IMG/VR virus record: IMGVR_UViG_3300031134_000466
Origin: a virus
Lineage: Duplodnaviria > Heunggongvirae > Uroviricota > Caudoviricetes
Strand: one strand, 5' to 3'
Length of the DNA: 30,889 nucleotides
Of the stretch, positions 6,439 to 26,155 are shown piece after piece. Each line of letters begins with the position of its first letter. The first letter of the stretch is position 1. The translations under genes and the position numbers were made by a program. The notes below the pieces were generated by a model. That model saw nothing but the letters and a program-made list of their open reading frames with translations. It did not search any database and was not told the origin of the DNA.

Positions 6439-6677
6439 TGGATAGAAAGAACTTTTATATCGTCGTTATATCATCTTTATATTAGATACATCTGCAGGAT
6501 TACCCCAGGTCATCCTGCAGATTCGATTTGAACTGAGGTATTCCTAAAAGCGTTGCTATTATACACTTGTTGTATTTCTTTTGGGGTTCAGATGCTAATG
6601 TTCAATCCTGCATCTTGTCGGCATTCTATCTGCTTTGCTTGCTAATAGTTTTCTGTTCATTTAGCCAAGCTTGCAAC

Positions 6678-6685
6678 GTTAGAGA
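6678..6685 (+). promoter_or_regulatory. GTTAGRNA-N6-ATG leaderless motif
   Basis: GTTAGAGA-tagcgt-ATG(6692); 12-bp CGTTAGAGATAG identical to 11191-11202. Confidence 0.55.
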
Positions 6686-6691
6686 TAGCGT

Positions 6692-10198: not shown

Positions 10199-10495
10199 GC
10201 CAGAAATCATTACTGATTGAGTGAACAGGCTTAGAGAATACTGTGAGAGATGCAAGGGTTGCAGCTGCTCATTTTTAGTGTGATAAGCTTGTCGCATTCG
10301 TCTAAATTGATTTGACGAATTGATCGTTGATAGCGACTAAACTCTGGGCCCAAAGCCTCCAATCGGCGTGGTCTGTCCCTAAAGTGACATTAAAAATGTC
10401 AAACATGCACTATTTCGTATTTGGAGACGATAGAGTATAAGGTCGTTATCTTTCCGTTACATTATTTTGTGTTTACTCAAGGACCTTTTTCTTTC

Positions 10496-11173
10496 ATGAG
10501 CGTTACCGTTTTATCCCCTCTTATTGCCATTTCTACAATCATCACAACAGCCACAACCCCTATCTCTGTACTTCCAGAACCAGAATCAACTACCCAAGCG
10601 TTAGACCTTTCAAGCATCTACGCAACAGATTCTGAAAACACACAAACTTTCACTGCATCATCAGATTCAGTAGCTACAGATATCTCCCGAGACAGTTACA
10701 CCGTAACTGACCCACCTGCTCCAGAGCCAGCTCCCTTCACCTCAGCAACAGCGATTACAACCACAACACCAACAACATCAATCCCAGTTGTTCCTACTGC
10801 TCTTAACGGTAGCACCAAAGAGCAGATTGTTCAGCTTGCCTTACAGTACGAAGGCGTGCCGTACGTGTTCGGTGGAGCTACTCCTTCAGGTTGGGACTGC
10901 TCTGGATATGTGAAATGGGTTACAAACCAAGTAACTGGAATCGATTTTCCTCATGGTGTAAGCAGTGAAGCCCACTCTGCCTACACTCACCCTGTATCAC
11001 GAGCTGAAGCACAGCCAGGAGACTTCGTAGTGTTCTACAGTGGAGCTTCTGAATACCACATCGGAATTTATTTAGGCAACAATAAACTCATTCATGCTTC
11101 AAAACCTGGCGATGTCACAAAGATTTCACCAATTTGGACTGACTCAGTTGCTTTTTATTCATTAAACGGCTAA
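10496..11173 (+). CDS. Secreted NlpC/P60 (C40) cell-wall peptidase
   Basis: GVPYVFGGATPSGWDCSG (catalytic Cys), HIGIYLG...LIHAS; Thr/Pro linker. Start at 10496 preferred (AAGGA SD) over the track start 10421. Confidence 0.9.
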   Translation: MSVTVLSPLIAISTIITTATTPISVLPEPESTTQALDLSSIYATDSENTQTFTASSDSVATDISRDSYTVTDPPAPEPAPFTSATAITTTTPTTSIPVVPTALNGSTKEQIVQLALQYEGVPYVFGGATPSGWDCSGYVKWVTNQVTGIDFPHGVSSEAHSAYTHPVSRAEAQPGDFVVFYSGASEYHIGIYLGNNKLIHASKPGDVTKISPIWTDSVAFYSLNG

Positions 11174-11191
11174 GAAACATGTCATGCTATC

Positions 11192-11199
11192 GTTAGAGA
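11192..11199 (+). promoter_or_regulatory. GTTAGRNA-N6-ATG leaderless motif
   Basis: GTTAGAGA-tagatt-ATG(11206). Confidence 0.55.
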
Positions 11200-11205
11200 T
11201 AGATT

Positions 11206-12111
11206 ATGACTACTACAACAAACAGATGCCGAGCTAAGAACCCTGAAACTTGCTGGAAACATGGTACAGGTTTAGGTTTTGATGCTCACCGTGAAATTCG
11301 TGAGTACGTGAAGTACCCTCTCCAGCATTCAAATAAAGCGATTTTCACCACAGCTTTGAAAACTTATGACAGCACTCAGATCGCTTCAGTTGTCATGGCT
11401 TACGCAAATAAAACTCCCAGCATCAACGCAGCCAGGGTAAAGAAAGCTTTACTTCTTGCAGCTGATCTACACAAAACAGACACAAGAGCTAACCGTGCCT
11501 ACCATGAGCGCACTCCTTACATCGAACACCCTCTTCGTAACACGCTAAGAATCATTCGATACGGATGCAATGATGAAGCAACTTTGATTGGTTCATTACT
11601 CCACGACACAGTGGAAGACCATCCTTTCGAGATTGCCCGTGAATACGCTAAAGAAGAACCACGTGATGAAGCTCATGCTCGTGAGATTTCTTACCGTTAC
11701 ATCGAAAAGAACTTCGGTAAAAATACAGCTCAAATGGTTGAAGGTATGTCAAACCCTATCAGCGAAGACCGTTACATGCCGGCAGCACAGAAAAATGCAG
11801 TGTATCGTGACCATGTAATCAAAGCTATCAAAAACCCTCGTGTAGCTATTGGTAAAATCAGCGACTTCACCGACAATGCTTTGTCTCTTCACCACACTGA
11901 AGCAGGGATGTCAGCAGTGTCATTGTACAAAAAATCAACCAAATATCTTGGAGTGATTGACGAACTTACTCATAGAGTAAAACAAGGTTACGTCAACAAC
12001 GACCTACCAATTTCTGAAATTGGCTACAAGAATATTCTGAACCAGTTGACTGAAGGTAAAACAAAACTTCTGGATATCCAACGCCGTTACGCTCCTGAGA
12101 AAGCAGCTTGA
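11206..12111 (+). CDS. RelA/SpoT-type HD hydrolase (small alarmone hydrolase-like) with N-terminal Cys/His tag
   Basis: R....TPYIEHP, LLHDTVED, KISDFTDN motifs; N-terminus CRAKNPETCWKHG. Confidence 0.8.
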   Translation: MTTTTNRCRAKNPETCWKHGTGLGFDAHREIREYVKYPLQHSNKAIFTTALKTYDSTQIASVVMAYANKTPSINAARVKKALLLAADLHKTDTRANRAYHERTPYIEHPLRNTLRIIRYGCNDEATLIGSLLHDTVEDHPFEIAREYAKEEPRDEAHAREISYRYIEKNFGKNTAQMVEGMSNPISEDRYMPAAQKNAVYRDHVIKAIKNPRVAIGKISDFTDNALSLHHTEAGMSAVSLYKKSTKYLGVIDELTHRVKQGYVNNDLPISEIGYKNILNQLTEGKTKLLDIQRRYAPEKAA

Positions 12112-12360: not shown

Positions 12361-12366
12361 CCGATA
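12361..12366 (+). promoter_or_regulatory. CCGATA promoter motif
   Basis: CCGATAatATATAAG, 35 nt upstream of the pilin-like ATG. Confidence 0.5.
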
Positions 12367-12401
12367 ATATATAAGACACATAACCTTTTATCAGAAACTA
12401 T

Positions 12402-12803
12402 ATGATGAATCTTTTCAAATCTTCAAAAGGTGCAGTTGACCTTCCTTCTATTATTGTGGGAATCATCGTAGTGGGTGTCCTTGCTGGAATCACTTCTGTA
12501 ACAGTGTTAGGTATTATTCCTTGGGCTCAAGATAATTCAGCAAAGCAGGCTTTGACTTCTTTATCCACTGCTCAAAATTCATATAAGCAGGTGTATGACA
12601 TTTACGGTACTCAAGCACAGCTTGTTGAAAAGAAGTTGTTAGCAGCAAACGACAAAACCTGCAGTATAGTTGCGACTAACGGACTTACCTACTCTTCAGC
12701 ATCTAAATCCACCACAGGTAAAATGTTTGCCAGTGACTCCGCTACTCTAAAACCGCGTCAAGTAGCGGTTGGAGAAACAACCTGCTTCGGTGTTTTCAAA
12801 TAA
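12402..12803 (+). CDS. Type IV pilin-like protein
   Basis: Basic leader ending in KG followed by a long hydrophobic helix (AVDLPSIIVGIIVVGVLAGI...IPWAQD) and two Cys in the head domain; lacks the canonical Glu+5. Confidence 0.6.
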   Translation: MMNLFKSSKGAVDLPSIIVGIIVVGVLAGITSVTVLGIIPWAQDNSAKQALTSLSTAQNSYKQVYDIYGTQAQLVEKKLLAANDKTCSIVATNGLTYSSASKSTTGKMFASDSATLKPRQVAVGETTCFGVFK

Positions 12804-13634: not shown

Positions 13635-13976
13635 ATGCCTAAGTTCCAGTTCCGCCCAGTGCTTCCTGTCATCACGGTTAGCACTGTAAAGCAGGATGAC
13701 CTGAAGGAAATTGCTAGCAACCTTCACACCTTCGCAGGGGTGAATCCTCAGGATGTGACTAAGGGCAAGCTGAAGAAGCAAGGGTTTGTTGTTGTTGATG
13801 GTGACCAGCGTGATGGTTACGAAACACGAGTTATTGTTGAAGTAGGTGACTTCCTGGTTGTTTCCAATAACGGAGTTCAGGCTATTGCTAAGGACGCCCG
13901 CATCCTTGATGGTGACTTCACAGGTCTCCCTGCTGAACTGTTTACTCCAATTACAGGAACTGCTCTAAACGAGTAA
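13635..13976 (+). CDS. Hypothetical protein
   Basis: 113-aa ORF with SD-like GAAAGAA, its own promoter and terminator. Confidence 0.75.
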   Translation: MPKFQFRPVLPVITVSTVKQDDLKEIASNLHTFAGVNPQDVTKGKLKKQGFVVVDGDQRDGYETRVIVEVGDFLVVSNNGVQAIAKDARILDGDFTGLPAELFTPITGTALNE

Positions 13977-13986
13977 AAAGTACCAG

Positions 13987-14022
13987 AGTGTGGCCACCTG
14001 ACATGTTCCAGGTGGCCACACT
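13987..14022 (+). terminator. Intrinsic terminator
   Basis: AGTGTGGCCACCTG-N8-CAGGTGGCCACACT followed by TATTT. Confidence 0.75.
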
Positions 14023-14029
14023 TATTTAA

Positions 14030-14042
14030 CCGATAGATATAA
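14030..14042 (+). promoter_or_regulatory. CCGATA-N2-TATAA promoter motif
   Basis: CCGATAgaTATAA starting 37 nt before ATG 14067; same spacing as at 22223. Confidence 0.6.
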
Positions 14043-14066
14043 GGGACATAGAGTGAGGATAATTAG

Positions 14067-15506
14067 ATGTGTAGAAAATTAGAAGACGGTGGACGCCGTT
14101 GCAACTCAGACAATGCTTTCGGTATTCACGTGAGAAATCTGCAAGCCCAGAAGCAGTACCATGCCAAGCAAGGTAACACTGATCGTGTTGCCATCATTAC
14201 TGATGAGATGGAGAAACTTCGAGAGAAGAAAGCTCATTTGACTGCTGATGGTGGTAAAATCCGTGCCTATTCCATGGAGCTCACAGAGAACGCTCAACGT
14301 GTCTTGAATCAGTTGCGTGAAGATGGATATGAACCGTACGTTGTAGGTGGAAGTGTTCGTGATGCATTGCTGGGTCTTGACTCCAAAGACGTTGACATCG
14401 AAGTGTACAAAGCCACACCTGAGGAAGTTGTTGCTTCTTTGAGTAAAATTGGTCAAGTTGACGAAGTAGGTAAATCTTTTGGTGTGTTGAAAATTCAAAT
14501 CGGAGGAGAAGACTTTGATGTCTCTCTTCCTCGTAAAGATTCCAAAGTTGGTGATGGGCATAGAGGCTTCACCACTGAACTGCTTCCAGAACTTTCAATG
14601 TATGAAGCAACAGCACGTCGTGATTTCACCATCAATGCTTTGATGTATGACAACCAGCTTGGATACATTATCGATAAGCATGAAGGTCTTGAAGACTTAG
14701 ACAAAAAGCAACTTCGTCACATCTCTGATGCGTTTGATGAAGACCCTTTGCGTGTTCTTCGTGGAGTTCAGATGGCTTCTCGTTTCGACATGGAATTGCA
14801 TCCTGACACTGTTGTAAAAGCTCAGACCTTACAGCCACAGTTCCAGGCATTAGCTAAAGAGCGTGTTCAAACTGAGTTTGAGAAACTTTACTCGAAAGGT
14901 AAAGCCCCTCACAAAGCTTTCCAGCTGTTGAAGTCTACTGGCTGGGACACCAACTTTAGTGGATTAGCCGACGCTAATGACGAAAAACTGGGTCAGAATC
15001 TACAAAGAACTCAATCGTTAGCAGATGATGGCACAATTCCTAAGAGCAAATATGCTTACGTCTTGTCAGCAAACATTGCTTCACACTTGAATGACAATGA
15101 TGCTAAGAGTTTTCTAAGCTACACAACAATCGGGGATGATGCTAAGAACGGCTCGTACAATCTTTCTCGTTTGCAGCTTCCTGAGAATGAAGACAAAGCA
15201 ACTATGAGACATTGGGCTAAGTCTTTGACTCGCCATAACACCGTTCAGGATTGGGTATACCTTGCTAAATCTCGTGGTGAGACTGAGAAAGCTGAACGTA
15301 TTCAAAACACTGCTCAGGCTTTAGGTCTTCTTGACGGACCTGAACCTGATTTAGTGAAAGGTGAAGACTTGATGGCGTTATTCCCTGGCCGTCGTCCAGG
15401 TCCTTGGATGAGAATTGCTTTGGATGAATCCCGAGCTGCTCAATATGCGGATGGTTTCCGTACCCGTGAATCAGGTTTGGCTTGGATTAAGAAAAACTTG
15501 GTGTAA
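14067..15506 (+). CDS. cca: Class II tRNA nucleotidyltransferase (CCA-adding enzyme family) with N-terminal Cys tag
   Basis: VGGSVRDALLG..SKDVDIEV, RRDFTINAL, DPLRVLR, ERVQTEFEK; extra N-terminal ~70 aa beginning MCRKLEDGGRRC. Confidence 0.85.
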   Translation: MCRKLEDGGRRCNSDNAFGIHVRNLQAQKQYHAKQGNTDRVAIITDEMEKLREKKAHLTADGGKIRAYSMELTENAQRVLNQLREDGYEPYVVGGSVRDALLGLDSKDVDIEVYKATPEEVVASLSKIGQVDEVGKSFGVLKIQIGGEDFDVSLPRKDSKVGDGHRGFTTELLPELSMYEATARRDFTINALMYDNQLGYIIDKHEGLEDLDKKQLRHISDAFDEDPLRVLRGVQMASRFDMELHPDTVVKAQTLQPQFQALAKERVQTEFEKLYSKGKAPHKAFQLLKSTGWDTNFSGLADANDEKLGQNLQRTQSLADDGTIPKSKYAYVLSANIASHLNDNDAKSFLSYTTIGDDAKNGSYNLSRLQLPENEDKATMRHWAKSLTRHNTVQDWVYLAKSRGETEKAERIQNTAQALGLLDGPEPDLVKGEDLMALFPGRRPGPWMRIALDESRAAQYADGFRTRESGLAWIKKNLV

Positions 15507-15510
15507 CAAC

Positions 15511-15557
15511 AAACGAAGAAGGTCACCTCTTGTTGATGGAGGTGACCTTCTTCGTTT
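15511..15557 (+). terminator. Intrinsic terminator
   Basis: 19-bp arms AAACGAAGAAGGTCACCTC / GAGGTGACCTTCTTCGTTT. Confidence 0.8.
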
Positions 15558-15610
15558 CATCTGTGACGAACAAACAGGTGTTTCTCAGGAAGAAATGGTA
15601 GAGTGGGTTC

Positions 15611-15886
15611 ATGAATACCTCAAAAGACAAGCTCAACACCATGATGGAAGATGCTCTCCTGCTTCTGACCTTCTATGACAAAACAGATGACAGTCCTTTG
15701 GATGATGAAACTCGCTCTTTGATGGCTCCTTTGTTTACAATGCAGACTGCCGGCGGTGGAGGACTCGTTCTGACCTTCCTTCTCATGCAGGAATATGCGG
15801 CAGCAGCAGATATGACGACAGAGGAAGTTGTTGAAGTCCTTCGAGGCCGTCTGTTTGGGTTGCTGGAGAACCTTTCCAAGGACTAA
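15611..15886 (+). CDS. Hypothetical acidic helical protein (leaderless)
   Basis: TGG-TAGAGT-N6-ATG signature; 91 aa. Confidence 0.65.
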   Translation: MNTSKDKLNTMMEDALLLLTFYDKTDDSPLDDETRSLMAPLFTMQTAGGGGLVLTFLLMQEYAAAADMTTEEVVEVLRGRLFGLLENLSKD

Positions 15887-15931
15887 CCCTTGCATGTGTC
15901 CGATAGCTTCTCACAAGCAAAAAGGACACCA

Positions 15932-16573
15932 ATGTTAGACGACAGGCTAAAACTGTACACCCCTAAAGAAGTCAGAGAAATGCTGGCTTCTGATCGTAGA
16001 CTGTATGGAACTCCATACCCATTTCCTCATCCCCGAGCAAAAATCACTGCTGATGACGACGGGAAGATGAAAGGACTAATAACAGAGCATGCTGTTGCCA
16101 ATTTGCTCAACCTGTTGATCTTTGACTATAAAGACTTATATGTTTTTCATTCAATCGGAAACTACGGGGATGAAGATGGAGAAACAGACAACATTTTGAT
16201 CTACCAGAACACGCTTATCATCATTGAAGCCAAATCTTTATCCAATTTTGATTCAGTATCAATTGATACTGATGGGAAAATGTATGGCCGCAGGGGTAAG
16301 AAGAAAATAGCTTTAGGTGGTCACAACAATCTCGTCAAGAAAGTATCCGCATTTCGTGAAAGATACCCTTTCATGAAAGTTTATGGTTTCTATGTAGTAC
16401 GTCAAGCTCAAAAGACAGGTAGCTCTTATTCAGGTTTGTATGTGTCTACGTTAGAAAAGATACTCAACGAAACAAGTCTTGTCTTGGATAACGCAAAGAC
16501 ACCAACAAGCTCTACGGCTGTCTTGCTAAAAGAAACGATGGATCACTGTATCCGACATGAAGTAGTTAACTGA
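15932..16573 (+). CDS. NERD-like PD-(D/E)XK nuclease domain protein
   Basis: TEHAVANLL...YVFHSI...ETDNILIYQNTLIIIEAKS; ATG 15932 with AAGGA SD preferred over track start 15890; CCGATA at 15900-15905. Confidence 0.7.
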   Translation: MLDDRLKLYTPKEVREMLASDRRLYGTPYPFPHPRAKITADDDGKMKGLITEHAVANLLNLLIFDYKDLYVFHSIGNYGDEDGETDNILIYQNTLIIIEAKSLSNFDSVSIDTDGKMYGRRGKKKIALGGHNNLVKKVSAFRERYPFMKVYGFYVVRQAQKTGSSYSGLYVSTLEKILNETSLVLDNAKTPTSSTAVLLKETMDHCIRHEVVN

Positions 16574-16635
16574 AACAAATCACAAAATGCTGTTACAGTA
16601 CACAGTTGTAACGGTAAAAGAAAAAGGAAACGAAT

Positions 16636-17121
16636 ATGCTGGTAGATGCTCTCTTAGGCAAGGACAATGAAGCAGGTCTTGCTGGGGTTTCTTTTATGAA
16701 AGCCTACTGCGATCCGAACAAAAAACTTGAACGAATGGTTGATGTTCTGGGTGTCATGTCTGTTGAAGAACTAATCAAAGGTCTGGTGTTTGTTTCAGGC
16801 GTGCTGTCCACCCTGATTACAGGTGATAGCAACGCGAAGAGAATGTATGGTGTACTTCGAGCTAACCTTGTATCACCTGAAGGTAACCTTTCAGGAACAG
16901 AGACTGAACTCATGAACCTTCTTGACGCTTCTGAAGACAGCACTCCAGGGAAGCTTTTCCTGAAGTTGTACAGTCTAACTGAGCCAGTTGAAATGCTGGG
17001 GATGTTAGCTGCTCTGAACTTTACTCTGATGAAAAACCCTGTTTTTGAGTCGACTCCCATGGAGACATTAGAATCTCTTCGTAACAGCCTACTTGATGAC
17101 TACATCAACAAAAAACAGTGA
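16636..17121 (+). CDS. Hypothetical protein
   Basis: 161-aa ORF with AAAGGA SD and TGT-TACAGT extended -10 upstream. Confidence 0.7.
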   Translation: MLVDALLGKDNEAGLAGVSFMKAYCDPNKKLERMVDVLGVMSVEELIKGLVFVSGVLSTLITGDSNAKRMYGVLRANLVSPEGNLSGTETELMNLLDASEDSTPGKLFLKLYSLTEPVEMLGMLAALNFTLMKNPVFESTPMETLESLRNSLLDDYINKKQ

Positions 17122-17130
17122 CGTTTTTCA

Positions 17131-17138
17131 GTTAGGAA
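17131..17138 (+). promoter_or_regulatory. GTTAGRNA-N6-ATG leaderless motif
   Basis: GTTAGGAA-cactcc-ATG(17145). Confidence 0.45.
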
Positions 17139-17144
17139 CACTCC

Positions 17145-17945
17145 ATGAAGAATGTCCGCTGTCAAGCCCGCACTCCAGGGCACTGCCGCGACCCACGTTG
17201 TCCTGAGAAAAATCATCTAAAAGAAATCTTCGACAAGGCTTTGTTGGATGAAGACTATCAGACAATGTTTGCGGTGAAAGAGGAGATGGATCGTTTCAAG
17301 CCAATCGGGGTTTACCCTGCTTCCAACGCAGAAGAATGGGACCAGTTAGTCCTGTCAGACGACACTACAAATGAACAAATAACTGTAGGAATTACTCCTG
17401 AGAAAACATCTCATCAGTACGACCTGAAAACAGTTCCATCTTTCTCATCCTACTCAGATATCCAGAAGTTTTTTACACAAGACCCTAATGTTGTTCTACT
17501 TCTGGGCGCGACTCTATATAATAGCCCTGTTGCTGGCCATACAGTAAAAGAGTTTTATGTCTCACCTGGCTTGAGAGGTCAAGGTGTGGGTGGATGGATT
17601 ATGGGCATCCTAACAAAGCATGCAGATGATAATAACAGCATGCTTTTTCTCACTCCAACTTCGGCTGGAGATAAGAAGATAGACACTCGACATCCGCAGT
17701 ATGAAACTAAAGCTTTAGCTCATAGAGAGCGACTTACGCGTTTCTACCAAAAGAACGGTTTCCAGCAAAATCCATTCTGGATTCCAATTGGATGGAAGGA
17801 TGAGTTGACCCAAAAACCTTGGCAGTTGGATGAGCAAGAGATGAGCAAATTTACTAGCCAAGGCAAAACTTATTTAGGTTCACCTCAGACGCCTCAGCTG
17901 GTTAGACTTCCTCACGGTAAGTGGCCTGAAAGCTTCCAAAAGTAG
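17145..17945 (+). CDS. GNAT-family acetyltransferase with N-terminal Cys tag (paralog of 27941..28780)
   Basis: Acetyl-CoA motif VSPGLRGQGVG, RLTRFYQKNGF; N-terminus CQARTPGHCRDPRCPE. Confidence 0.8.
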   Translation: MKNVRCQARTPGHCRDPRCPEKNHLKEIFDKALLDEDYQTMFAVKEEMDRFKPIGVYPASNAEEWDQLVLSDDTTNEQITVGITPEKTSHQYDLKTVPSFSSYSDIQKFFTQDPNVVLLLGATLYNSPVAGHTVKEFYVSPGLRGQGVGGWIMGILTKHADDNNSMLFLTPTSAGDKKIDTRHPQYETKALAHRERLTRFYQKNGFQQNPFWIPIGWKDELTQKPWQLDEQEMSKFTSQGKTYLGSPQTPQLVRLPHGKWPESFQK

Positions 17946-18091
17946 CCAGAGAGGCTCTTAGCGGCCATCTGAGGAGGTTTTACTGCTTCTGCTTCCACCG
18001 AGCCATTCCTACTGCTTGAAGCGATTACAAGGCGTTCTACAGAGGTAGGAATAAAATGAGTTAGGATGAGATGTCTTGATATAATAAGGGT

Positions 18092-19099
18092 ATGGAAAAA
18101 GTTGCTGATGTTCACAGAGATGCTGTCTTAGCATCTTTGCCTGAAATGGCAGTTCTTCCAGAAGACCTTCAAACTGAGATTACTCAAATCTTAGCATCTT
18201 ACGATAGTTTTTACTCTTCTGTAATCGCAAAACTGTCAGACTTGACAAAGAAGAATTGGACTGCCACTCGTTATTCGAGCAGTCATGGCATATCTGCTGC
18301 AGCTGTTGGAATCAATCACGAAATCAACGAACTGCGAGCTCACGCAGCCACAACTAAGATTTTCCCCACAGACATTCTCACTGTAGAACACTATGGAGGA
18401 GCTAACTCCCAGAAGAATGACCTTGAAGTTTTCGTCAAAGGCGAAACAGAGCCTTTCTTTGCTGTTGAAGTAAAGTCATACCAGGCTCAGTTGGGTCAAA
18501 TCATTCTAACTACAGAGGGCAAGCCTCGAACAGATAGCTTACTGGAAAACTATATCAGTCAAATTTCTCAGTCTCGTTTAGTGGTCACTCCTGAAGTAGA
18601 AAATTTTGTAACCAGAGCTTGGCTGGCTAAGAAATTTGTCAACCAGAAAATTGCCTTTGTTGCTGTACCCTACAGAGAAAAAGTGACATTGTTCAGCCTT
18701 TTTGACTTACATTTCCTCAGAGATGTTTCTTTGACTATTCAAAAAGTGAGGCTGAAAAAGTCAGGTTCCAGCAATGTTCCATTGAGAGACAAAGTAGAGG
18801 TGTCTCAAATTTTGGCAGCTTCTATTCCTTCTTTAGTCGGAGTTGTTGATTATGACTTGGATAAGCTCACAGTAACACTGACTCGGACACAGTATGACAA
18901 GATGGCATTGTCAGAAAAATATCTTTCTGACACATGGTTTTTAGGTCGTAAAAGTAGCAACACTGCAGACAATCCTGAACACATCATGCTAACAGTCAAA
19001 AAGCTATCATCCGCTGATTTGCCTAACGCTCATACCCAGCATGTGATGATGTCTTTGAGATACAAACCAACTCCAATTAAACCGATAGCTAACCCATGA
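18092..19099 (+). CDS. Putative type II restriction endonuclease (PD-(D/E)XK)
   Basis: KNDLEV...AVEVKSY catalytic-like motif; ATGA-coupled to a C5-MTase; leaderless TGA-TATAAT-N6-ATG. Confidence 0.55.
   Translation: MEKVADVHRDAVLASLPEMAVLPEDLQTEITQILASYDSFYSSVIAKLSDLTKKNWTATRYSSSHGISAAAVGINHEINELRAHAATTKIFPTDILTVEHYGGANSQKNDLEVFVKGETEPFFAVEVKSYQAQLGQIILTTEGKPRTDSLLENYISQISQSRLVVTPEVENFVTRAWLAKKFVNQKIAFVAVPYREKVTLFSLFDLHFLRDVSLTIQKVRLKKSGSSNVPLRDKVEVSQILAASIPSLVGVVDYDLDKLTVTLTRTQYDKMALSEKYLSDTWFLGRKSSNTADNPEHIMLTVKKLSSADLPNAHTQHVMMSLRYKPTPIKPIANP
19082..19087 (+). promoter_or_regulatory. CCGATA motif inside the endonuclease 3' end, leaderless spacing to the MTase
   Basis: CCGATA-N8-ATG(19096). 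Confidence 0.5.
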
Positions 19100-20067
19100 C
19101 TGACCTTACCTTTATAGACCTTTTTGCCGGCATTGGCGGTAACCATATTGCGTTGGAACGCAATGGATTTGAGTCTGTGTACACTTCAGAATGGGACAAA
19201 AACTGTTCTGTTGTTCTTTTCAATAACTATGGTGTTGAAGTGAACGGAGACATCACTAAGATCGATGAAACAAGCGTTCCTGACCACACGCTACTCTCCG
19301 CTGGCTTTCCATGCCAGGCTTTTAGTATCTCAGGTAAGCGTTTGGGATTTGAAGATACTCGTGGAACACTCTTCTTTGATGTAGCTCGCATCATCAAAGA
19401 AAAGCGACCTCCCTTGGTTCTGCTGGAAAATGTCCGTAATTTTGCTTCACATGATGGAGGAAGAACTTTAGAGGTTGTCCGTACTACAATGGAACAACTG
19501 GGATACACTTTCACTCATCAGCTGTACAATGCTTCTGACTTTGGAGTACCTCAAAACAGGCAGAGAGTGTTTATGGCTGCTATTCGAGAAGACATAAAAG
19601 ACACTCCATTTGTATTCCCCGAACCTCCTCACACTGCTGTCTCTTTGAGAGATGTACTATTACCACCAGAAGAAGTCGAAGATTTAGTCATCACTCATCG
19701 CAATGACATTGTTCTAAATCAGGCGGCCATTGACAAAGCCGTAGCTGTAAACAAACCAATCCGAGTGGGACATCTGGGTAAAGGTGGTCAAGGTGAAAGA
19801 ATTTACTCAGATTTAGGTCATGCTATTACTCTTTCAGCTTACGGTGGAGGCGTTGGGGCGAAAACAGGTTTGTACTACACAGCAGGCGTGAACGGTGACA
19901 TGATTGTTCGTAAACTTCACCCTCGTGAATGTGCTAGACTTCAAGGATTCCCTGAGACTTTCCAGCTCCCAAATTCCAGAACCCAAGCATGGCAGCAGTT
20001 TGGTAACAGCGTTCCTGTCCCTATTGTGGAGTCAGTGACTAAAGCTATGCTGCGTCATATCAGCTGA
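19096..20067 (+). CDS. DNA (cytosine-5) methyltransferase, M.HhaI-like (predicted GCGC)
   Basis: FAGIGG, GFPCQAFS, ENV, QNRQRVF, GNS motifs; target-recognition region GKGGQGERIY...AITLSAYGGG..AKTG closely matches M.HhaI. Confidence 0.92.
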   Translation: MTDLTFIDLFAGIGGNHIALERNGFESVYTSEWDKNCSVVLFNNYGVEVNGDITKIDETSVPDHTLLSAGFPCQAFSISGKRLGFEDTRGTLFFDVARIIKEKRPPLVLLENVRNFASHDGGRTLEVVRTTMEQLGYTFTHQLYNASDFGVPQNRQRVFMAAIREDIKDTPFVFPEPPHTAVSLRDVLLPPEEVEDLVITHRNDIVLNQAAIDKAVAVNKPIRVGHLGKGGQGERIYSDLGHAITLSAYGGGVGAKTGLYYTAGVNGDMIVRKLHPRECARLQGFPETFQLPNSRTQAWQQFGNSVPVPIVESVTKAMLRHIS

Positions 20068-21506
20068 TGAAAAGCAAACTACAGAAATTTCTGACCTTAG
20101 CATTCAACGGCACACCTTTCATAGCGTTAGTGCTGATTTTTATCACAGGAGTCAGCCTTTTCAGGGCATCGTTTTTGCCTGAAGTTGACATTCTCTGGGG
20201 AGCTCGCAATGGAGGAGACCTGCTCCGTAACGGAGTAACTCTATTCACCCCCGACACTTGGAACGCCATTACATTAGGTGAGGAATGGGCGCCGAATTCA
20301 TGGTTATGGAATGTTGTTCTGTACGCCAGTTTTACAGCATTTGGAACAGCTGGCTTCTTCATCCTCACAGCTGTAACTAACTTCCTGACATACCTATGTT
20401 TTTGGTTGACACTAAAAGCATCACGCTTGACTCCAACATGGCAATTCATAGGCTTGTTTCTAATCTGGGCTGTTACCGTCCAATTTTTGAACGGTCGTTC
20501 TAATACTGTCGATTTCCTCATCCTTGGAGTGTTTTTATTAGGGGTAGGAAAGCTACGGACTGTAACAAAGTTGCCTCTCAAAGTAGGCTTGTACTCTCTG
20601 CTTTCATTCGTGATAACCGCACTATGGATGAATCTTCACCTGACTGCATTAGCAGCCATCGCCGTGTTCCCAGCTGTTGTCTACATTCATCATTACAATT
20701 ACGTTTTCAAAAAGAAGGTTCTTTTCGCTGCTGCTGCTTTCGTAGGAGTGCTTTTAGCTATCCCTCTGACTCCCTTCGGCATAAAAGGTCTGGTGAAGGT
20801 TTCACAAGTAACCAACGAATCGAAAGACTTTTTCATCGAATGGTCTAACGTTTTCGCTACAGGAACACCCAACTGGGCTGTCATTGCGGTAGTTGTTTTC
20901 GGAGCTATTATGGCGTTAGTTGCTCTGCAGCATAAACAGTGGATTATTGCTGCCATGCTCGTAGTGTTATGCTACTTCGCTTTCGACATAATAAGATTCA
21001 CTCCTTTCCTGCTTATCTTCATTCTTGCTTCTTTACGCATGGTAAACAGATGGAAATTACCATATCGAAGATATGTTCAGACGGTAACAATTTTGGTTAC
21101 TGTCGCAATGTTAGGGGTGGGAATTTACTCTACAGTCAAAGCTACAACAGACTGGAACAGTATTCTTCCTGTTGACCCTGCCAGCTTCTCCGACATCCCT
21201 CCAAACGCGGTAGTAGCAACAGACCAAGATAGCGGAGGAACTCTACTTCTTTACCGTCCAGATGTGCACGTAACGTTGGATGGAAGGAACGATTTGATGG
21301 GTAAAGAACGATTCATTGAATCTTCCAACATCTTATTCTCTGATGATTTGAATAACATCGAAGACTGGCTCCAAGAATATGATGTGGATACTGTGTTTGT
21401 TGAAGACCCAGAATCTTACAACTCTATTGTAGAGAATATGGATGAATTAGGTTGGCAAAAATTTGAAGGAAAACATTCTCTTACTTTCCTTCAACCCAAA
21501 AAGTAA
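20067..21506 (+). CDS. Polytopic membrane protein, GT-C glycosyltransferase-like
   Basis: About 10-12 TM helices, first loop D..W...G...D.W....G..W...WL, C-terminal soluble GG.L....V.LDGR.D; start overlaps the MTase stop. Confidence 0.55.
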   Translation: MKSKLQKFLTLAFNGTPFIALVLIFITGVSLFRASFLPEVDILWGARNGGDLLRNGVTLFTPDTWNAITLGEEWAPNSWLWNVVLYASFTAFGTAGFFILTAVTNFLTYLCFWLTLKASRLTPTWQFIGLFLIWAVTVQFLNGRSNTVDFLILGVFLLGVGKLRTVTKLPLKVGLYSLLSFVITALWMNLHLTALAAIAVFPAVVYIHHYNYVFKKKVLFAAAAFVGVLLAIPLTPFGIKGLVKVSQVTNESKDFFIEWSNVFATGTPNWAVIAVVVFGAIMALVALQHKQWIIAAMLVVLCYFAFDIIRFTPFLLIFILASLRMVNRWKLPYRRYVQTVTILVTVAMLGVGIYSTVKATTDWNSILPVDPASFSDIPPNAVVATDQDSGGTLLLYRPDVHVTLDGRNDLMGKERFIESSNILFSDDLNNIEDWLQEYDVDTVFVEDPESYNSIVENMDELGWQKFEGKHSLTFLQPKK

Positions 21507-21589
21507 GAACACTGTATTCATTTAGTTGTCCTGGTTGGTTTTGGTAGTAGTAAACCGATTTCTATGAGGTATACCGAAAAAGGATTGAC

Positions 21590-22189
21590 ATGACTGTTGT
21601 AATTACACCAAACCAATTAGCTGCCAGAGACAATAGAGCTCCCTCGCCTGCTGTAAAAATGGACGGGTCCCAATTTGAGTGGCGTATGTTCTATGATTCA
21701 AACCGTTTAGTTGCTGACTGCGAAACAACAGAAGATGCTTTGGGAGTCCTCATCACTGGATACGCTGCTCTATCTGCTGAGGACAAACTACAAGCTCGAA
21801 TCAATTTAGCTCAGACAGTGCAGCTCAAAGCACGCACCATGATTGCATCTCGCATTACTCCAGAAACAGCAGAGAAGCTGAAAGACTGGGAATGGGAAGT
21901 TCTTACAAGTGCTGGAGATACTTATGGCTGGGGTTTGGGAGAAGGAACATTAGGAACAATCAAGAATGATGAAGTTATTGATTTCTGGTTCTCTGACCTT
22001 CCTCTTGTACTTGTAACCACATCATATGCACCGCATACTGAAATTCCTCGACCAATCTCCAAAGAAGGAGATTATGAAGAGGTCAAGAACCTGATTTGGC
22101 TACGCCCTGAGTACGAGCTTGATTTTCTCCGTTCATTATCTCGTATTGGTTACATTGCTTTCGGAACTGCTCAGAATGTAGTTAACTGA
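21590..22189 (+). CDS. Hypothetical protein
   Basis: 199-aa ORF with AAAGGA SD; near-motif CCGATT at 21555. Confidence 0.75.
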   Translation: MTVVITPNQLAARDNRAPSPAVKMDGSQFEWRMFYDSNRLVADCETTEDALGVLITGYAALSAEDKLQARINLAQTVQLKARTMIASRITPETAEKLKDWEWEVLTSAGDTYGWGLGEGTLGTIKNDEVIDFWFSDLPLVLVTTSYAPHTEIPRPISKEGDYEEVKNLIWLRPEYELDFLRSLSRIGYIAFGTAQNVVN

Positions 22190-22222
22190 ACCATCTGGCA
22201 AAGGACAAAGTAGGGTTTGTCC

Positions 22223-22235
22223 CCGATAGCTATAA
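22223..22235 (+). promoter_or_regulatory. CCGATA-N2-TATAA promoter motif
   Basis: CCGATAgcTATAA starting 37 nt before ATG 22260. Confidence 0.6.
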
Positions 22236-22259
22236 AGAAGAAAATGAGCAAGGGAAAAT

Positions 22260-25200
22260 ATGTGTAATGCAGTTCGTGACGGTGGACGCCGTTGCCCAAT
22301 CCATCAGCACACCAGTATCGCTGGTATTCGTGCAGTCGTAGCCGCCACTGGTCTGCAGCGTCGTCAGGTAGAGAATACCTTCCGCGAACTTCGCAGAGAA
22401 GGAGCGGATATTACAGAAATCTCTCCAGAAGCCCGCCAGCAAGCAATTGACAGCCTCCGGGTTGTTGCTGAAGAAGCTAATGATCTGACCGCGTATGAAC
22501 GTCAGATGAGAATTGCTGACCGTTGGAACGAAGAACCTGACCAGGCTACATCCTATGCTCTAACGCATTTGGTTGAGATTTCCAAAAGAAAAGCCGAAGC
22601 TCTCAAAGCTGAACTACAATCTGTTGCTGACCGCACAGGTTACACTCTTGAAGAAGTTCAAGCTAAGTACTATGAAGAGTATGATGCTGTCCCTACCGGT
22701 AACAACGTAGAAATGCCGGCAGAACACACTGCTGCAGCAACTCAGCGTCAAAGAAGAGCAGGTCTTCCTTATGACCGTTCCTCTGTTGTTGCGTTAGAGC
22801 GTGTACGTACTCTTGTTTCTCCTGATAACCGTCAGGCTCGCATTGAGAACCACGAACCAATCAACAGTACTAACTTAGCTTTTGTCGGTTACCATGAAGG
22901 CCGTTTGGAAGTCTCTTTCCAGCATGAACCAGAAACCTTCTATGCTTACCAGAACGTACCTGAAGCGTTGTATGAACGATTGCGTTCAGCACAGCGTCCA
23001 GGTTCTGTGTACAGCAGAAGCATCAGAGGAAACTCTGAATATACCTATGACAGTCCTGAAGCAGCTGAAGCAGACGGATATGTGTTACGTTGTGCTTCTT
23101 GTGGACAATTCCGAGCTCAGCGACACAACTGCCCAGAAAGAGCAGCTCGAAACAACTTAGCTGCTTTCGGAACTCCTGCAGAGAACATTCAAGAAGCCCT
23201 GGATGCTGGAGTGTCTCCTGAGGTTCCTGAAGCTGCTTTCGTAGTAGAAGACTTAACACGTGTTGATTATGCTCCGTCTGCTTCAGAACAAGAAGTTGCT
23301 GAGTATGTGGCCAGTGCAGACTTCCAGGAGAGACTGCCATTTGGTACAGCATCAACTTCTCAGGCTCCAGACGGAACTATCCGCCATGTCGTGAACTTAG
23401 GTGAAGAATTTACTGAGCGTGAGACATTCAGAGCTCACACTGGCAGTATGCAGAACCGTAGACCTTCTACATTCACCCGCACTTTCTTCGATAGAGAAAA
23501 TCCTACTGCTGAAGAACTTGAGGTAATGATTGAAACTCGTGATGCGTTCAATGCTTTGTCAACTGTGACAACTTTGCATTACATCAACGTAGTCCGAGAC
23601 AATTTGCACCGCGCTGACTTCTCAATGCCTGTTTCTGCAGAATTCAACCGAATTACTTCACCTGATACTGCTAACAGAATGTTGCCATCAAGCACTGTCT
23701 CTGGAACCATCCAGATTGGCCGTTTAGCTGAAGGCGAAACTCTTGAAGACGCTATTATTCGTGAACGCCACCTGAAATGTACTTGTGCTGATTATCAGGA
23801 AAACTACGACTGTGTTCATGTGCGTGCAACTGCCCGTAACCCTTATGTGTTCTTGACCAACCGTAGCCGTCGTTTTGTTGAAGGGGAGCATTACACTTCT
23901 TACATCAACCGTCATTCTGTTGCTGTTCAGGACGAAGAACGTATTCGTAACCGTATGCGTACCGCTGGTGTTGACCGTGCAAGAGCTATCGAGTTAGCTG
24001 AAGAAGAGCGTGCTGAGCAGCAGAGACAACGTGAAGAGCAGGAACGTTACTACCGTGCTTCTCAGGCTGAACGTGAACGAATCAACATGGAACGTGGTTT
24101 GCGTGAAGCTGAAACTTTGCGTACACGAAATGCTACTGTCGTAGCTGCCAGCGATGAGTACCGTACTCGTATGATGGCTCGTTGGGAAGAAGAAGAGCCT
24201 GGTTACACTGGGAACGTCGACGCTTTGTACGAAGACTACCGTGAAACTCTACGTCGCAAGCGTGCTGGTGAAGAGTACATGGATTTCCGTACAGAAAACG
24301 TCACTGATGGTATTTGTGCTGATGAGCCTGGTGCTCGTGCGTTTGGTATCGAACTTGAGTTCGACATTGGAAGTGGTCATAACCGTTCTACATCATTACG
24401 CAAAATTGCTGAAGAACTCTACGAAGCTGGTTTAACTGAAGAGAACTACCAGCAGGAGTACCACTCTGCTCGTGCAAGCGGCTGGGGTGCTTGGTCCTTC
24501 GAAGAAGATTGTACTGTTCATGGTGAGTTGGTTTCACCGATTATGAAGGACACTCCTGAACATTGGAATCAGTTGAAGACAGCTTTGGAGATTATTACTC
24601 GTAACGGTGGGGTTGCTACTACTCGTACTGGTTCTCACGTTCATATTTCTACTGCATCTTACGAGTCTTCTCCTGCGAAGCATCTTGAGCTGTTACGTCA
24701 GGTGAACCAGAATGATGAAATGATGTACCGTTTGGCAACCGACCCTGCACGTGGTAGCCACCGTGGTATGCGTTGGTGTGCACCTAACGTAAACGATACA
24801 AGTGAAACTGTTTCTGCTGATGTGTCAAGTAGTCATAACGTTTTGGGTAGCCATATGTCTCACAGCTATGCTATGAACTTCGAAGGCACCTACTCATCTG
24901 ACTACAGCCGTTCCAACATTGAATTCCGTATGTGGGATGCTACTCTGGATGCTGCCGTGATTCAGCGACAGATTATGGTTTCAGCAGCAATGACTGACCA
25001 GGCTGAACGTAACGTAATCAACAACGGTGAATCAGCTCGTCCGACAGCTTCTCGTTCGCGTATTGGTGCAGCTCGTACAGCTGAGCGTACTTTGTTAGGT
25101 ACAAGTCGTACTCATACACGCGAAACTTTCGAGCAGTCAATGGGTTCAGCTCCTCAGTTCTTTGATGGATTGTTCCGTCGACAGGAAGACCGCCAGAGAG

Positions 25201-25283
25201 TTGCTTCATTGTTTGCTGTTACCAACTGGCAAAACTACAATGACAGTTACGATGATGATGACGATGATGACGGTTACTACTGA
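22260..25283 (+). CDS. Multidomain protein: Cys tag - KTSC - Zn ribbon - SWIM - coiled coil - amidoligase (COOH-NH2 ligase type 2)
   Basis: MCNAVRDGGRRC; KTSC (STNLAFVGY...LEVSF...YAYQNVPEALYERL...PGSVY); CASCGQF...HNCP; SWIM CTC...CVHV; amidoligase RAFGIELEF, GELVSP, GSHVHIS, EFRMWDATL; poly-Asp tail. Confidence 0.8.
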   Translation: MCNAVRDGGRRCPIHQHTSIAGIRAVVAATGLQRRQVENTFRELRREGADITEISPEARQQAIDSLRVVAEEANDLTAYERQMRIADRWNEEPDQATSYALTHLVEISKRKAEALKAELQSVADRTGYTLEEVQAKYYEEYDAVPTGNNVEMPAEHTAAATQRQRRAGLPYDRSSVVALERVRTLVSPDNRQARIENHEPINSTNLAFVGYHEGRLEVSFQHEPETFYAYQNVPEALYERLRSAQRPGSVYSRSIRGNSEYTYDSPEAAEADGYVLRCASCGQFRAQRHNCPERAARNNLAAFGTPAENIQEALDAGVSPEVPEAAFVVEDLTRVDYAPSASEQEVAEYVASADFQERLPFGTASTSQAPDGTIRHVVNLGEEFTERETFRAHTGSMQNRRPSTFTRTFFDRENPTAEELEVMIETRDAFNALSTVTTLHYINVVRDNLHRADFSMPVSAEFNRITSPDTANRMLPSSTVSGTIQIGRLAEGETLEDAIIRERHLKCTCADYQENYDCVHVRATARNPYVFLTNRSRRFVEGEHYTSYINRHSVAVQDEERIRNRMRTAGVDRARAIELAEEERAEQQRQREEQERYYRASQAERERINMERGLREAETLRTRNATVVAASDEYRTRMMARWEEEEPGYTGNVDALYEDYRETLRRKRAGEEYMDFRTENVTDGICADEPGARAFGIELEFDIGSGHNRSTSLRKIAEELYEAGLTEENYQQEYHSARASGWGAWSFEEDCTVHGELVSPIMKDTPEHWNQLKTALEIITRNGGVATTRTGSHVHISTASYESSPAKHLELLRQVNQNDEMMYRLATDPARGSHRGMRWCAPNVNDTSETVSADVSSSHNVLGSHMSHSYAMNFEGTYSSDYSRSNIEFRMWDATLDAAVIQRQIMVSAAMTDQAERNVINNGESARPTASRSRIGAARTAERTLLGTSRTHTRETFEQSMGSAPQFFDGLFRRQEDRQRVASLFAVTNWQNYNDSYDDDDDDDGYY

Positions 25284-25342: not shown

Positions 25343-25975
25343 TCAACTAAGTAGAGACGTTTCTAAAGCATCTACTGCTTTGTCGTATTCCTCTACATTG
25401 TCATAGTGGTCGTCAGTAATTTGACTTGAAATGAGAAGAGCTTGGAGTCTGTAGCCAACCAAGTCACCAGCTCGCCGGCTGGCAAGACCTGTCAACGCAT
25501 AGTCTTCCTTGGTTGGCTCTCCTGAAGTGCCAATAACAGTGATAGCAGAGTCTACAAGCTCCACTGAAGGCTTTTCTTCTGCTTTTAGGTAAGCTGTGAG
25601 CCATTCGACTGCTCGGCTCTTAAACGCAGCCTGGTGGCTTTTGTACTCTTCACGAGTTGAAAGTTTCCAGAAGAAAACGTCTTCTTTTTCCCAGGTTGTG
25701 ATGTCATTTGCAATGGAAAGTGCGTCGAGGTCGCTAAGGAAGTCTTCCCCTGTAATGATGACGATTTGGTCCAGAGTGCCTTGCACTTCTGCTTTGACTG
25801 GCCAGATGTATTTCATCTCAGTTGGCTCTACTCGGGTTACCTCTTCTTCTTGCTTTTGTCGGTAGAACACTCCTTCATTATCTTTGTAGAAGGGAAGTGT
25901 TTCCGTGTAGAACCCCTGGTTCCCATACTGGTCGCCAAGGAAGCCATAAAGTGTGTATAAAGTTGCGTCAGTCAT
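25343..25975 (-). CDS. Hypothetical protein (leaderless)
   Basis: TGC-TAAACT-N6-ATG on - strand; 210 aa, acidic. Confidence 0.75.
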   Translation of the reverse strand: MTDATLYTLYGFLGDQYGNQGFYTETLPFYKDNEGVFYRQKQEEEVTRVEPTEMKYIWPVKAEVQGTLDQIVIITGEDFLSDLDALSIANDITTWEKEDVFFWKLSTREEYKSHQAAFKSRAVEWLTAYLKAEEKPSVELVDSAITVIGTSGEPTKEDYALTGLASRRAGDLVGYRLQALLISSQITDDHYDNVEEYDKAVDALETSLLS

Positions 25976-26155
25976 GGAAGAAGTTTAGCATGAACATCAA
26001 ATGGTAAGTATTTTGGGAAGGATCAAACTATTTGTACCATTTCAACATTTTTTCGTCAATTTGACTAAAAAGTTGCCGATACTGTTTAATAGTGGTAAGA
26101 TAAAAACATAACGGGGTTACTTGAACGCCCGCTCTAAAACAACAAGGAGAATATC

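Follow-up and report, generated by a model that had tools for sequence, protein, structure and literature searches.

Two conserved signals, a promoter-like box and a putative N-terminal docking handle, coincide at the starts of two unrelated viral genes

Introduction

The likeness considered here stems from a 30,889-nucleotide stretch of Caudoviricetes DNA (IMG/VR record IMGVR_UViG_3300031134_000466), which was analysed at its full length and is called the window in the following. Two of its genes, one for a CCA-type tRNA nucleotidyltransferase (CCA enzyme) and one for a 1007-residue amidoligase protein, share a box upstream of the start codon and a short cysteine (Cys) head, or tag, at the very beginning of the protein. 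We propose that two separate conserved signals coincide in front of these genes and that the head serves as a metal-stabilised docking or delivery handle, an overall reading to which we assign a probability of roughly 60%. An earlier note on this DNA had explained the same likeness by a promoter-plus-tag unit of ~70 nt that was shuffled or gene-converted onto new cargo genes. Three lines of sequence comparison speak against such a unit: the matching blocks are parted by unrelated sequence, box and tag are separable, and the tag is ancestral.

Three short blocks shared by two gene starts

The shared blocks themselves are as the earlier note had described them. The promoter-like boxes CCGATAGATATAA (14030-14042, plus strand) and CCGATAGCTATAA (22223-22235, plus strand) are identical in 12 of 13 positions, and this 13-mer occurs exactly twice in the window. 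The start codons at 14067 and 22260 each lie 37 nt after the start of the box, with 24 nt between TATAA and ATG, and both genes open with ATGTGT. They are followed by an identical 18-mer, GACGGTGGACGCCGTTGC, at 14085-14102 and 22278-22295, for which no third copy was found in the window even with up to three mismatches allowed (0.01 copies expected by chance).

The cargo behind these starts is indeed unrelated. The CCA gene (14067-15506, plus strand) encodes 479 residues with a PolyA_pol/CCA-type nucleotidyltransferase (PF01743, PF12627), preceded by an N-terminal add-on of ~65 residues that consists of the Cys head and a helical hairpin. The amidoligase gene (22260-25283, plus strand) encodes a Cys head and a helical region followed by KTSC, a SWIM-like CxC..CxH segment and Amidoligase_2. 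When both proteins are compared by BLASTP, the first 12 residues are the sole common part. On the plus strand, 14067-14102 codes for the head MCRKLEDGGRRC of the CCA enzyme and 22260-22310 for the head MCNAVRDGGRRCPIHQH of the amidoligase protein, which includes C2, C12, H15 and H17; each of the two coding stretches holds its copy of the 18-mer. The latter stretch is also the only part of the gene matched at 80% or more by the contig of a long-form family member.

A base-by-base comparison limits the identity to three blocks. The spacer from box to ATG agrees in 8/24 positions and codons 3-6 in 3/12, and the flanks are no closer, with 8/40 in the 40 nt upstream of the box and 12/60 in the 60 nt after the 18-mer, all of it at the background of 0.25. 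With nothing above background between and around the blocks, the two gene starts do not amount to one contiguous duplicated cassette. Further copies on other cargo did not turn up either: the 18-mer is present only twice in the window, and its two matches in IMG/VR lie in another reading frame. In addition, the two signals come apart. Two of the four boxes in the window precede untagged genes, three other Cys-headed window genes have no box, and tagged genes of other phages have different upstream sequences.

A hairpin had also been placed directly before each unit, which holds for one of the two genes. Upstream of the CCA gene a terminator-like hairpin with a 15-bp stem (13986-14023, plus strand) ends the gene at 13635-13976 and is followed by TTATTT, read as UUAUUU in RNA; it folds with -30.3 kcal/mol (z -7.3), which none of 200 shuffles reached. 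At the amidoligase gene, the weak 7-bp stem after gene 21590-22189 (22203-22222, plus strand) is indistinguishable from chance (z -0.54). What survives of the earlier interpretation is thus a portable N-terminal peptide on unrelated cargo and a box that is promoter-like; their joint movement as a 70-nt mobile unit does not. The comparisons argue that these are two independent conserved signals rather than a recently copied cassette.

An old head in two enzyme families

A recently acquired tag should be absent from orthologues. Here it is widely present: the head MC[RQ]-x4-8-GG[RK]RC opens 111 of the best 120 CCA-family clusters among thousands of homologues, down to 36% identity, and in the rare amidoligase family every one of the 29 clusters opens with MC-x4-DGGRRCP[IV]H-x-H. 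M1, C2, G8, G9, R11 and C12 show little or no variation in either family. An hhalign comparison of the CCA N-termini with the amidoligase N-termini gives a probability of 95.9% (E 5e-9) over columns 1-27. With a tag that is ancestral to each family, down to 36-37% identity, the result comes close to what the earlier note itself would have held against recent shuffling, namely an ancestral segment and a chance match of its codons.

Ordinary phage CCA enzymes align from residue ~65 only. Because the tag is conserved in both families while these enzymes lack it, the head with its helical hairpin is, as far as the alignments reach, an old add-on of the CCA and amidoligase clades and not a recent graft. 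M-C-[RQN]-x4-G-G-R-R-C would then be an old, strictly N-terminal mini-module that each enzyme family has inherited vertically.

Actinobacterial amidoligase relatives begin MVCRERPGG...LSHQLRHEG, where the head is degenerate and the second Cys is missing, and a scan of genome contigs returned only such amidoligase-domain relatives and no true tags. Large relatives of the amidoligase domain are found on actinobacterial plasmids and chromosomes, for instance plasmids and contigs of Streptomyces, Kutzneria and Embleya (L093-L110), with 37-40% identity over residues ~640-990; some versions from metagenome-assembled genomes (L117, L125, L143) retain the degenerate N-terminus MVCRxxPGG...HQLRHEG. No tagged relative was found among GenBank phages or in PLSDB, and a metagenome scan with generic CCA core motifs retrieved only untagged distant relatives.

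The tagged CCA enzymes also vary in length. P0008, P0010 and P0019 have 547-549 residues, P0095 and P0102 have 640-646. Some tagged CCA enzymes contain an insertion of ~65 residues in the head domain, others a C-terminal AAA_33/Zeta-toxin-like kinase domain, and these variants could possibly be CCA-Pnkp fusions.

The upstream box as a candidate promoter

The second signal is not confined to tagged genes. A relaxed form of the box, CGATA-N1-3-TATAA[AG], starts at 10428, 12362, 14031 and 22224, four sites in the window against 0.56 expected. All four lie on the plus strand with 24-56 nt from TATAA to the ATG of the downstream gene. Besides the two boxes described above, these are CGATAGAGTATAA (10428-10440, plus strand), upstream of an untagged NlpC/P60 gene with its ATG at 10497, and CGATAATATATAA (12362-12374, plus strand), whose TATAA is 27 nt from the ATG of the untagged gene 12402-12803. 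In the long-form amidoligase family member (contig, metagenome runs X7 and X10), ATATAAG precedes the ATG by 28 nt. A scan for the sigma-70 consensus (-35 and -10 hexamers, 16-18 nt spacing) found no convincing pair at either box: the best at 14034 agreed in 9/12 positions, and there was none at 22223.

Position and recurrence suggest that the box is probably a -10-type promoter without a -35 element that serves one class of genes. The element probably marks transcription units of a single temporal class, whether their genes are tagged or not. After the terminator, transcription would restart ~6-8 nt past TATAA and produce a leader of ~17 nt with a Shine-Dalgarno sequence. Promoters that do not depend on a -35 element are familiar from phages, for example the late promoters of T4, TATAAATA. 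Like these, the window box is of the -10 type, centred on TATAA and devoid of a -35, and like other -35-independent phage promoters it stands directly after terminators and shortly before genes. It differs from the T4 late promoters in its distinct upstream half, CGATA-N1-3, and its promoter role is a prediction.

The box is further supported by a scarcity of TATAA[AG] in the window as a whole, with 24 sites on both strands compared to 53 in shuffled sequence. Such a depletion is expected of a signal that has a function and is kept out of other places.

Six identical codons

How, then, did an old peptide come to be written with the same codons twice? The identity reaches synonymous positions, as the earlier note had pointed out: all six DGGRRC codons are alike, where 3.6 of the six would be expected to differ. 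Given the peptide, the probability of identical codons is 0.0035 with the codon usage of the window, or 6.5e-4 if it is counted that the string is non-modal and contains the minor codons GGA and CGC. Elsewhere the picture is different. The two tagged genes of the complete 322-kb phage G003 show synonymous differences in 5 of 12 tag codons. Because tags in other phages use unrelated codons and this pair differs, neither nucleotide-level selection nor concerted evolution can be general. The identity in the window may be due to chance, to a micro-conversion of 18 nt or to a local function of the RNA or DNA.

Coincidence fares best among these, at a little under even odds in our estimate. It requires a common promoter type and chance convergence of codons on a constrained peptide, with no further biology in common, and both an ancient tag and a general box are what it needs. 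Moreover, the window was picked up by a scan of large scope, in which coincidences at the 0.3% level are flagged now and then, and selecting striking cases inflates their apparent significance. The low codon probabilities are harder to accommodate, and so is the same 37-nt spacing from box start to ATG in both genes.

A recent exchange through gene conversion or shuffling, in which either the 18 nt alone or the complete 5' module passed between the CCA and amidoligase genes, would account for the six codons including the rare GGA and CGC. It would also fit with Asp7 of the window CCA head, which is amidoligase-like, as the closest diverged relatives (64-72% identical) have Glu; yet Asp7 is frequent among other CCA-family members. 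Other observations are less favourable: both flanks are at background identity and offer no homology to guide a conversion, the tag pre-existed in both families, the G003 pair speaks against concerted evolution as a general process, and a match of this rarity is within the yield of a large scan. We consider an exchange doubtful.

Least probable of the three is a nucleotide-level function, with the 18-mer kept at +18 as an RNA hairpin or DNA operator that co-regulates translation or stability of both mRNAs: its 6-bp hairpin (-6.6 kcal/mol) persists in both mRNA contexts, has 4 of the 6 synonymous positions within the stem and is joined by another in-register 5' element, CGTTAGAGATAG at -15, that is common to two other genes, but 13 of 200 shuffles fold as well, and the tags of seven other phage genes are written in wholly different codons that share no hairpin.

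Two further short repeats were seen at gene starts. CGTTAGAGATAG (6677-6688 and 11191-11202) lies exactly at -15 of the ATGs of Pnkp (6692) and of an HD hydrolase (11206); of all in-register 5' elements at 30 gene starts, only this one and the 18-mer clearly depart from randomness, and it may serve both genes as a translation-initiation or operator signal. CCATGACTGAC, which comprises a start codon followed by Thr-Asp, is found at 19094-19104 and, on the minus strand, 25967-25977, in register in the methyltransferase gene 19096 and in gene 25975(-); this sharing is probably due to chance.

A widespread head on many kinds of cargo

The head extends far beyond the two enzymes. Scanning IMG/VR with back-translated patterns for tagged open reading frames revealed real ones with proper ribosome-binding sites, located on four high-GC contigs of 43-69 kb and in two complete phages. 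Of the latter, G003 has two tagged genes of 754 and 693 residues, 2.7 kb apart, and the 420-kb phage G004 has one of 552 residues. The neighbouring genes of G003 (L177:4923-9712) have an identical 25-residue head, MCRKLSLGGRRCPCSRGERRRAYQR, and are diverged downstream and at synonymous sites.

A profile of the tag built from nine independent heads was then searched against 1.84 billion cluster representatives (E<=0.001). This generated 82 representatives of 55-1365 residues, and in 78 of them the match begins at residue 1. After removal of the heads, and together with two CCA-family representatives and the two tagged enzymes of the window, the sequences fall into 25 cargo groups, the largest of which has 42 members, 39 of them with HExxH. 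A census of domains in 75 tagged representatives assigned the PHROG label 'minor head protein' to 32 and KTSC/amidoligase to 5-6. Alt-like ADP-ribosyltransferases and 'head maturation protease' are represented twice each, and a ParB C-terminal domain, an anti-restriction protein and ArdC-N once each, the last as cargo and not as head. For P0153, no solved-structure relative was found, and its matches to minor capsid genes of Lactococcus phages are no more than faint.

The head is not covered by any Pfam model, and Pfam families gave no match to the heads even at E<=10; nor is the head described in a survey of polyvalent proteins (PMC5512222) or in a review on jumbo phages (PMC7824862). Taken at the level of sequence, the tag is a widespread, unnamed and strictly N-terminal Cys head on phage proteins of the effector type.

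Three more genes of the window have other Cys-rich heads and no CGATA..TATAA box. The HD hydrolase gene at 11206 begins with MTTTTNRCRAKNPETCWKHG, and the genes at 17145 and 27941 have the matching heads MKNVRCQARTPGHCRDPRCPEKNH and MVTIKKCQSKKHSFGGCGDPRCPEG; 17145, unlike 27941, has a weak GNAT match (E 1.3e-5) below the cut-off of Pfam. All three share C-[RQ]-[AS]-x5-7-C with the MC head.

Structure of the head and its likely role

In AlphaFold models of the two N-termini, residues 1-16 form a loop in which residue 2 is bridged to residue 10, and a confident helical hairpin follows. Foldseek found no PDB analogue for either model, and ESM Atlas had no usable match. Almost every head has a Cys-Cys spacing of 9, and C2 and C12 are invariant. 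A third Cys or His at +2/+3 is present in 100% of the amidoligase, 88% of the other and 59% of the CCA representatives; a fourth ligand is clear in the amidoligase family only, at H17. Metal binding is plausible from this arrangement.

Several known motifs were considered and rejected. A lipoprotein signal would include a signal peptide and a lipobox, and there is neither. The N-terminal Cys of Ntn-amidotransferases does not agree in fold and length, a double-glycine leader lacks any conserved leader ahead of GG, and the twin Cx9C (CHCH) fold needs two such motifs where the head has a single Cx9C.

The most likely role of the head is that of a metal-binding docking or delivery tag. We infer this function because the position at residues 1-12 is strict, the cargo is diverse and the repertoire is of the effector type. 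The Cys-x9-Cys loop, usually with the third Cys or His at +2/+3, and the helices behind it would form a metal-stabilised docking handle, and the head would recruit the cargo to a single common partner, for example capsid, portal or DNA. By this route, a tRNA-repair CCA enzyme and an amidoligase could be present at the start of infection. The cargo set, with the HExxH 'minor head protein', the Alt-like ADP-ribosyltransferase, ArdC-N, ParB-C, the anti-restriction protein and the Pol-beta-type CCA enzyme, corresponds to the range of proteins that phages deliver along with their incoming DNA. The same head stands at the start of at least 25 cargo groups in phages of about 40 kb up to giant elements.

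A different possibility is that the head is no delivery signal at all but works inside the infected cell as a zinc knuckle, either regulatory or nucleic-acid-binding, whose basic GGRRC loop would bind tRNA, RNA or DNA or which would take part in redox or metal sensing. The invariant basic residues beside the Cys pair would suit such a knuckle, as would the nucleic-acid cargos (CCA enzyme, KTSC, ParB-C, ArdC-N). A substrate-binding knuckle has no need to sit at residue 1-2, however, and 78 of 82 heads do; it would also be out of place on the peptidase-like and ADP-ribosyltransferase cargo. We therefore regard it as unlikely.

Our overall reading has its own difficulties. The two-signal account alone does not explain the codon identity of the 18 nt (P ~0.0035), and the promoter assignment draws on position and recurrence at only four sites. 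The 'minor head protein' label from PHROG is confirmed by neither Pfam nor NCBIfam, and in G003 and G004, both complete jumbo phages, no head genes stand next to the tagged ones. The head loop is modelled with moderate confidence (predicted local distance difference test, pLDDT, 64-75), and 41% of the CCA-family heads miss the nearby third ligand. All these points weigh against our interpretation. A more far-reaching form of it, in which MC-x9-C is a general loading signal that brings arbitrary enzymes, a CCA-adding tRNA-repair enzyme and an amidoligase among them, to the particle or the incoming DNA from 40-kb high-GC phages to ~1-Mb giant elements, with the 18-mer in addition homogenised or co-regulated here at the nucleotide level, is unlikely in our judgement.

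Relation to known delivery systems

What would a short N-terminal delivery handle resemble? One close parallel is the capsid targeting sequence (CTS) of T4, a short peptide at the extreme N-terminus of the otherwise unrelated internal proteins IPI-III and Alt. The CTS lacks a Cys pair, is restricted to its lineage and is cleaved off at Leu/Ile-x-Glu by the prohead protease. The Cys head is comparable in its extreme N-terminal position on unrelated proteins (78/82 from residue 1; 25 cargo groups) and in a cargo set that includes an Alt-like ADP-ribosyltransferase. Unlike the CTS, it is not followed by a conserved Leu/Ile-x-Glu site in any family, and it spans 40-kb phages to giant elements; packaging is a prediction here.

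A second parallel is found in the polyvalent proteins. T4 Alt is packaged and injected (PMC5512222), and the hub domains of delivered polyvalent proteins are MPTase (a zincin-like peptidase), ART (ADP-ribosyltransferase), ParB and ArdC (Iyer et al. 2017, PMC5512222). Like the ArdC-N and MuF headers of these proteins (PMC5512222), the Cys head prefers the N-terminus and has zincin-like peptidase, ART, ParB, ArdC and Pol-beta nucleotidyltransferase as partner domains. In contrast to both headers, to which it has no sequence relation, it comprises only ~12-30 residues. Polyvalent proteins also carry 2-15 domains, while most Cys-head proteins have one cargo domain.

Along the same lines, polymorphic toxin systems have N-terminal trafficking domains (PMC3482391), so that, as in the Cys-head proteins, a constant N-terminal module is combined with a variable C-terminal payload. 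Those domains belong to cellular toxins and are each specific to a secretion system; the payloads of the Cys head are mostly phage repair and counter-defence enzymes, with no recognisable secretion signal.

Genomic setting

Further genes of the window code for a ClpB-like ATPase, Pnkp, an RNA ligase, an NlpC/P60 protein, an HD hydrolase, GNATs and the large subunit of a topoisomerase II, a gene content that fits a giant phage-like element. No close relative was found among GenBank phages, in IMG/VR or in PLSDB. Relatives at about 1-14% nucleotide divergence exist in metagenome runs, and the main carriers of the stretch or its close relatives are plant and phyllosphere runs from several studies. 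Among the variants listed for such runs, none falls within the two shared gene-start regions.

Implications

For annotation the two gene starts are a warning: short identical 5' stretches need not mean recent mobile cassettes. The head add-on also explains the ~65 N-terminal residues that remain unaligned in a large clade of CCA enzymes. If the delivery or docking signal is true, the head would offer a handle of 12-30 residues for cargo-loading experiments, and tRNA-repair enzymes could be pre-loaded against anticodon-nuclease defences. A simple sequence rule (MC start, Cys-x9-Cys, GGRRC) would then predict which proteins of uncultured giant phages act in the first moments of infection.

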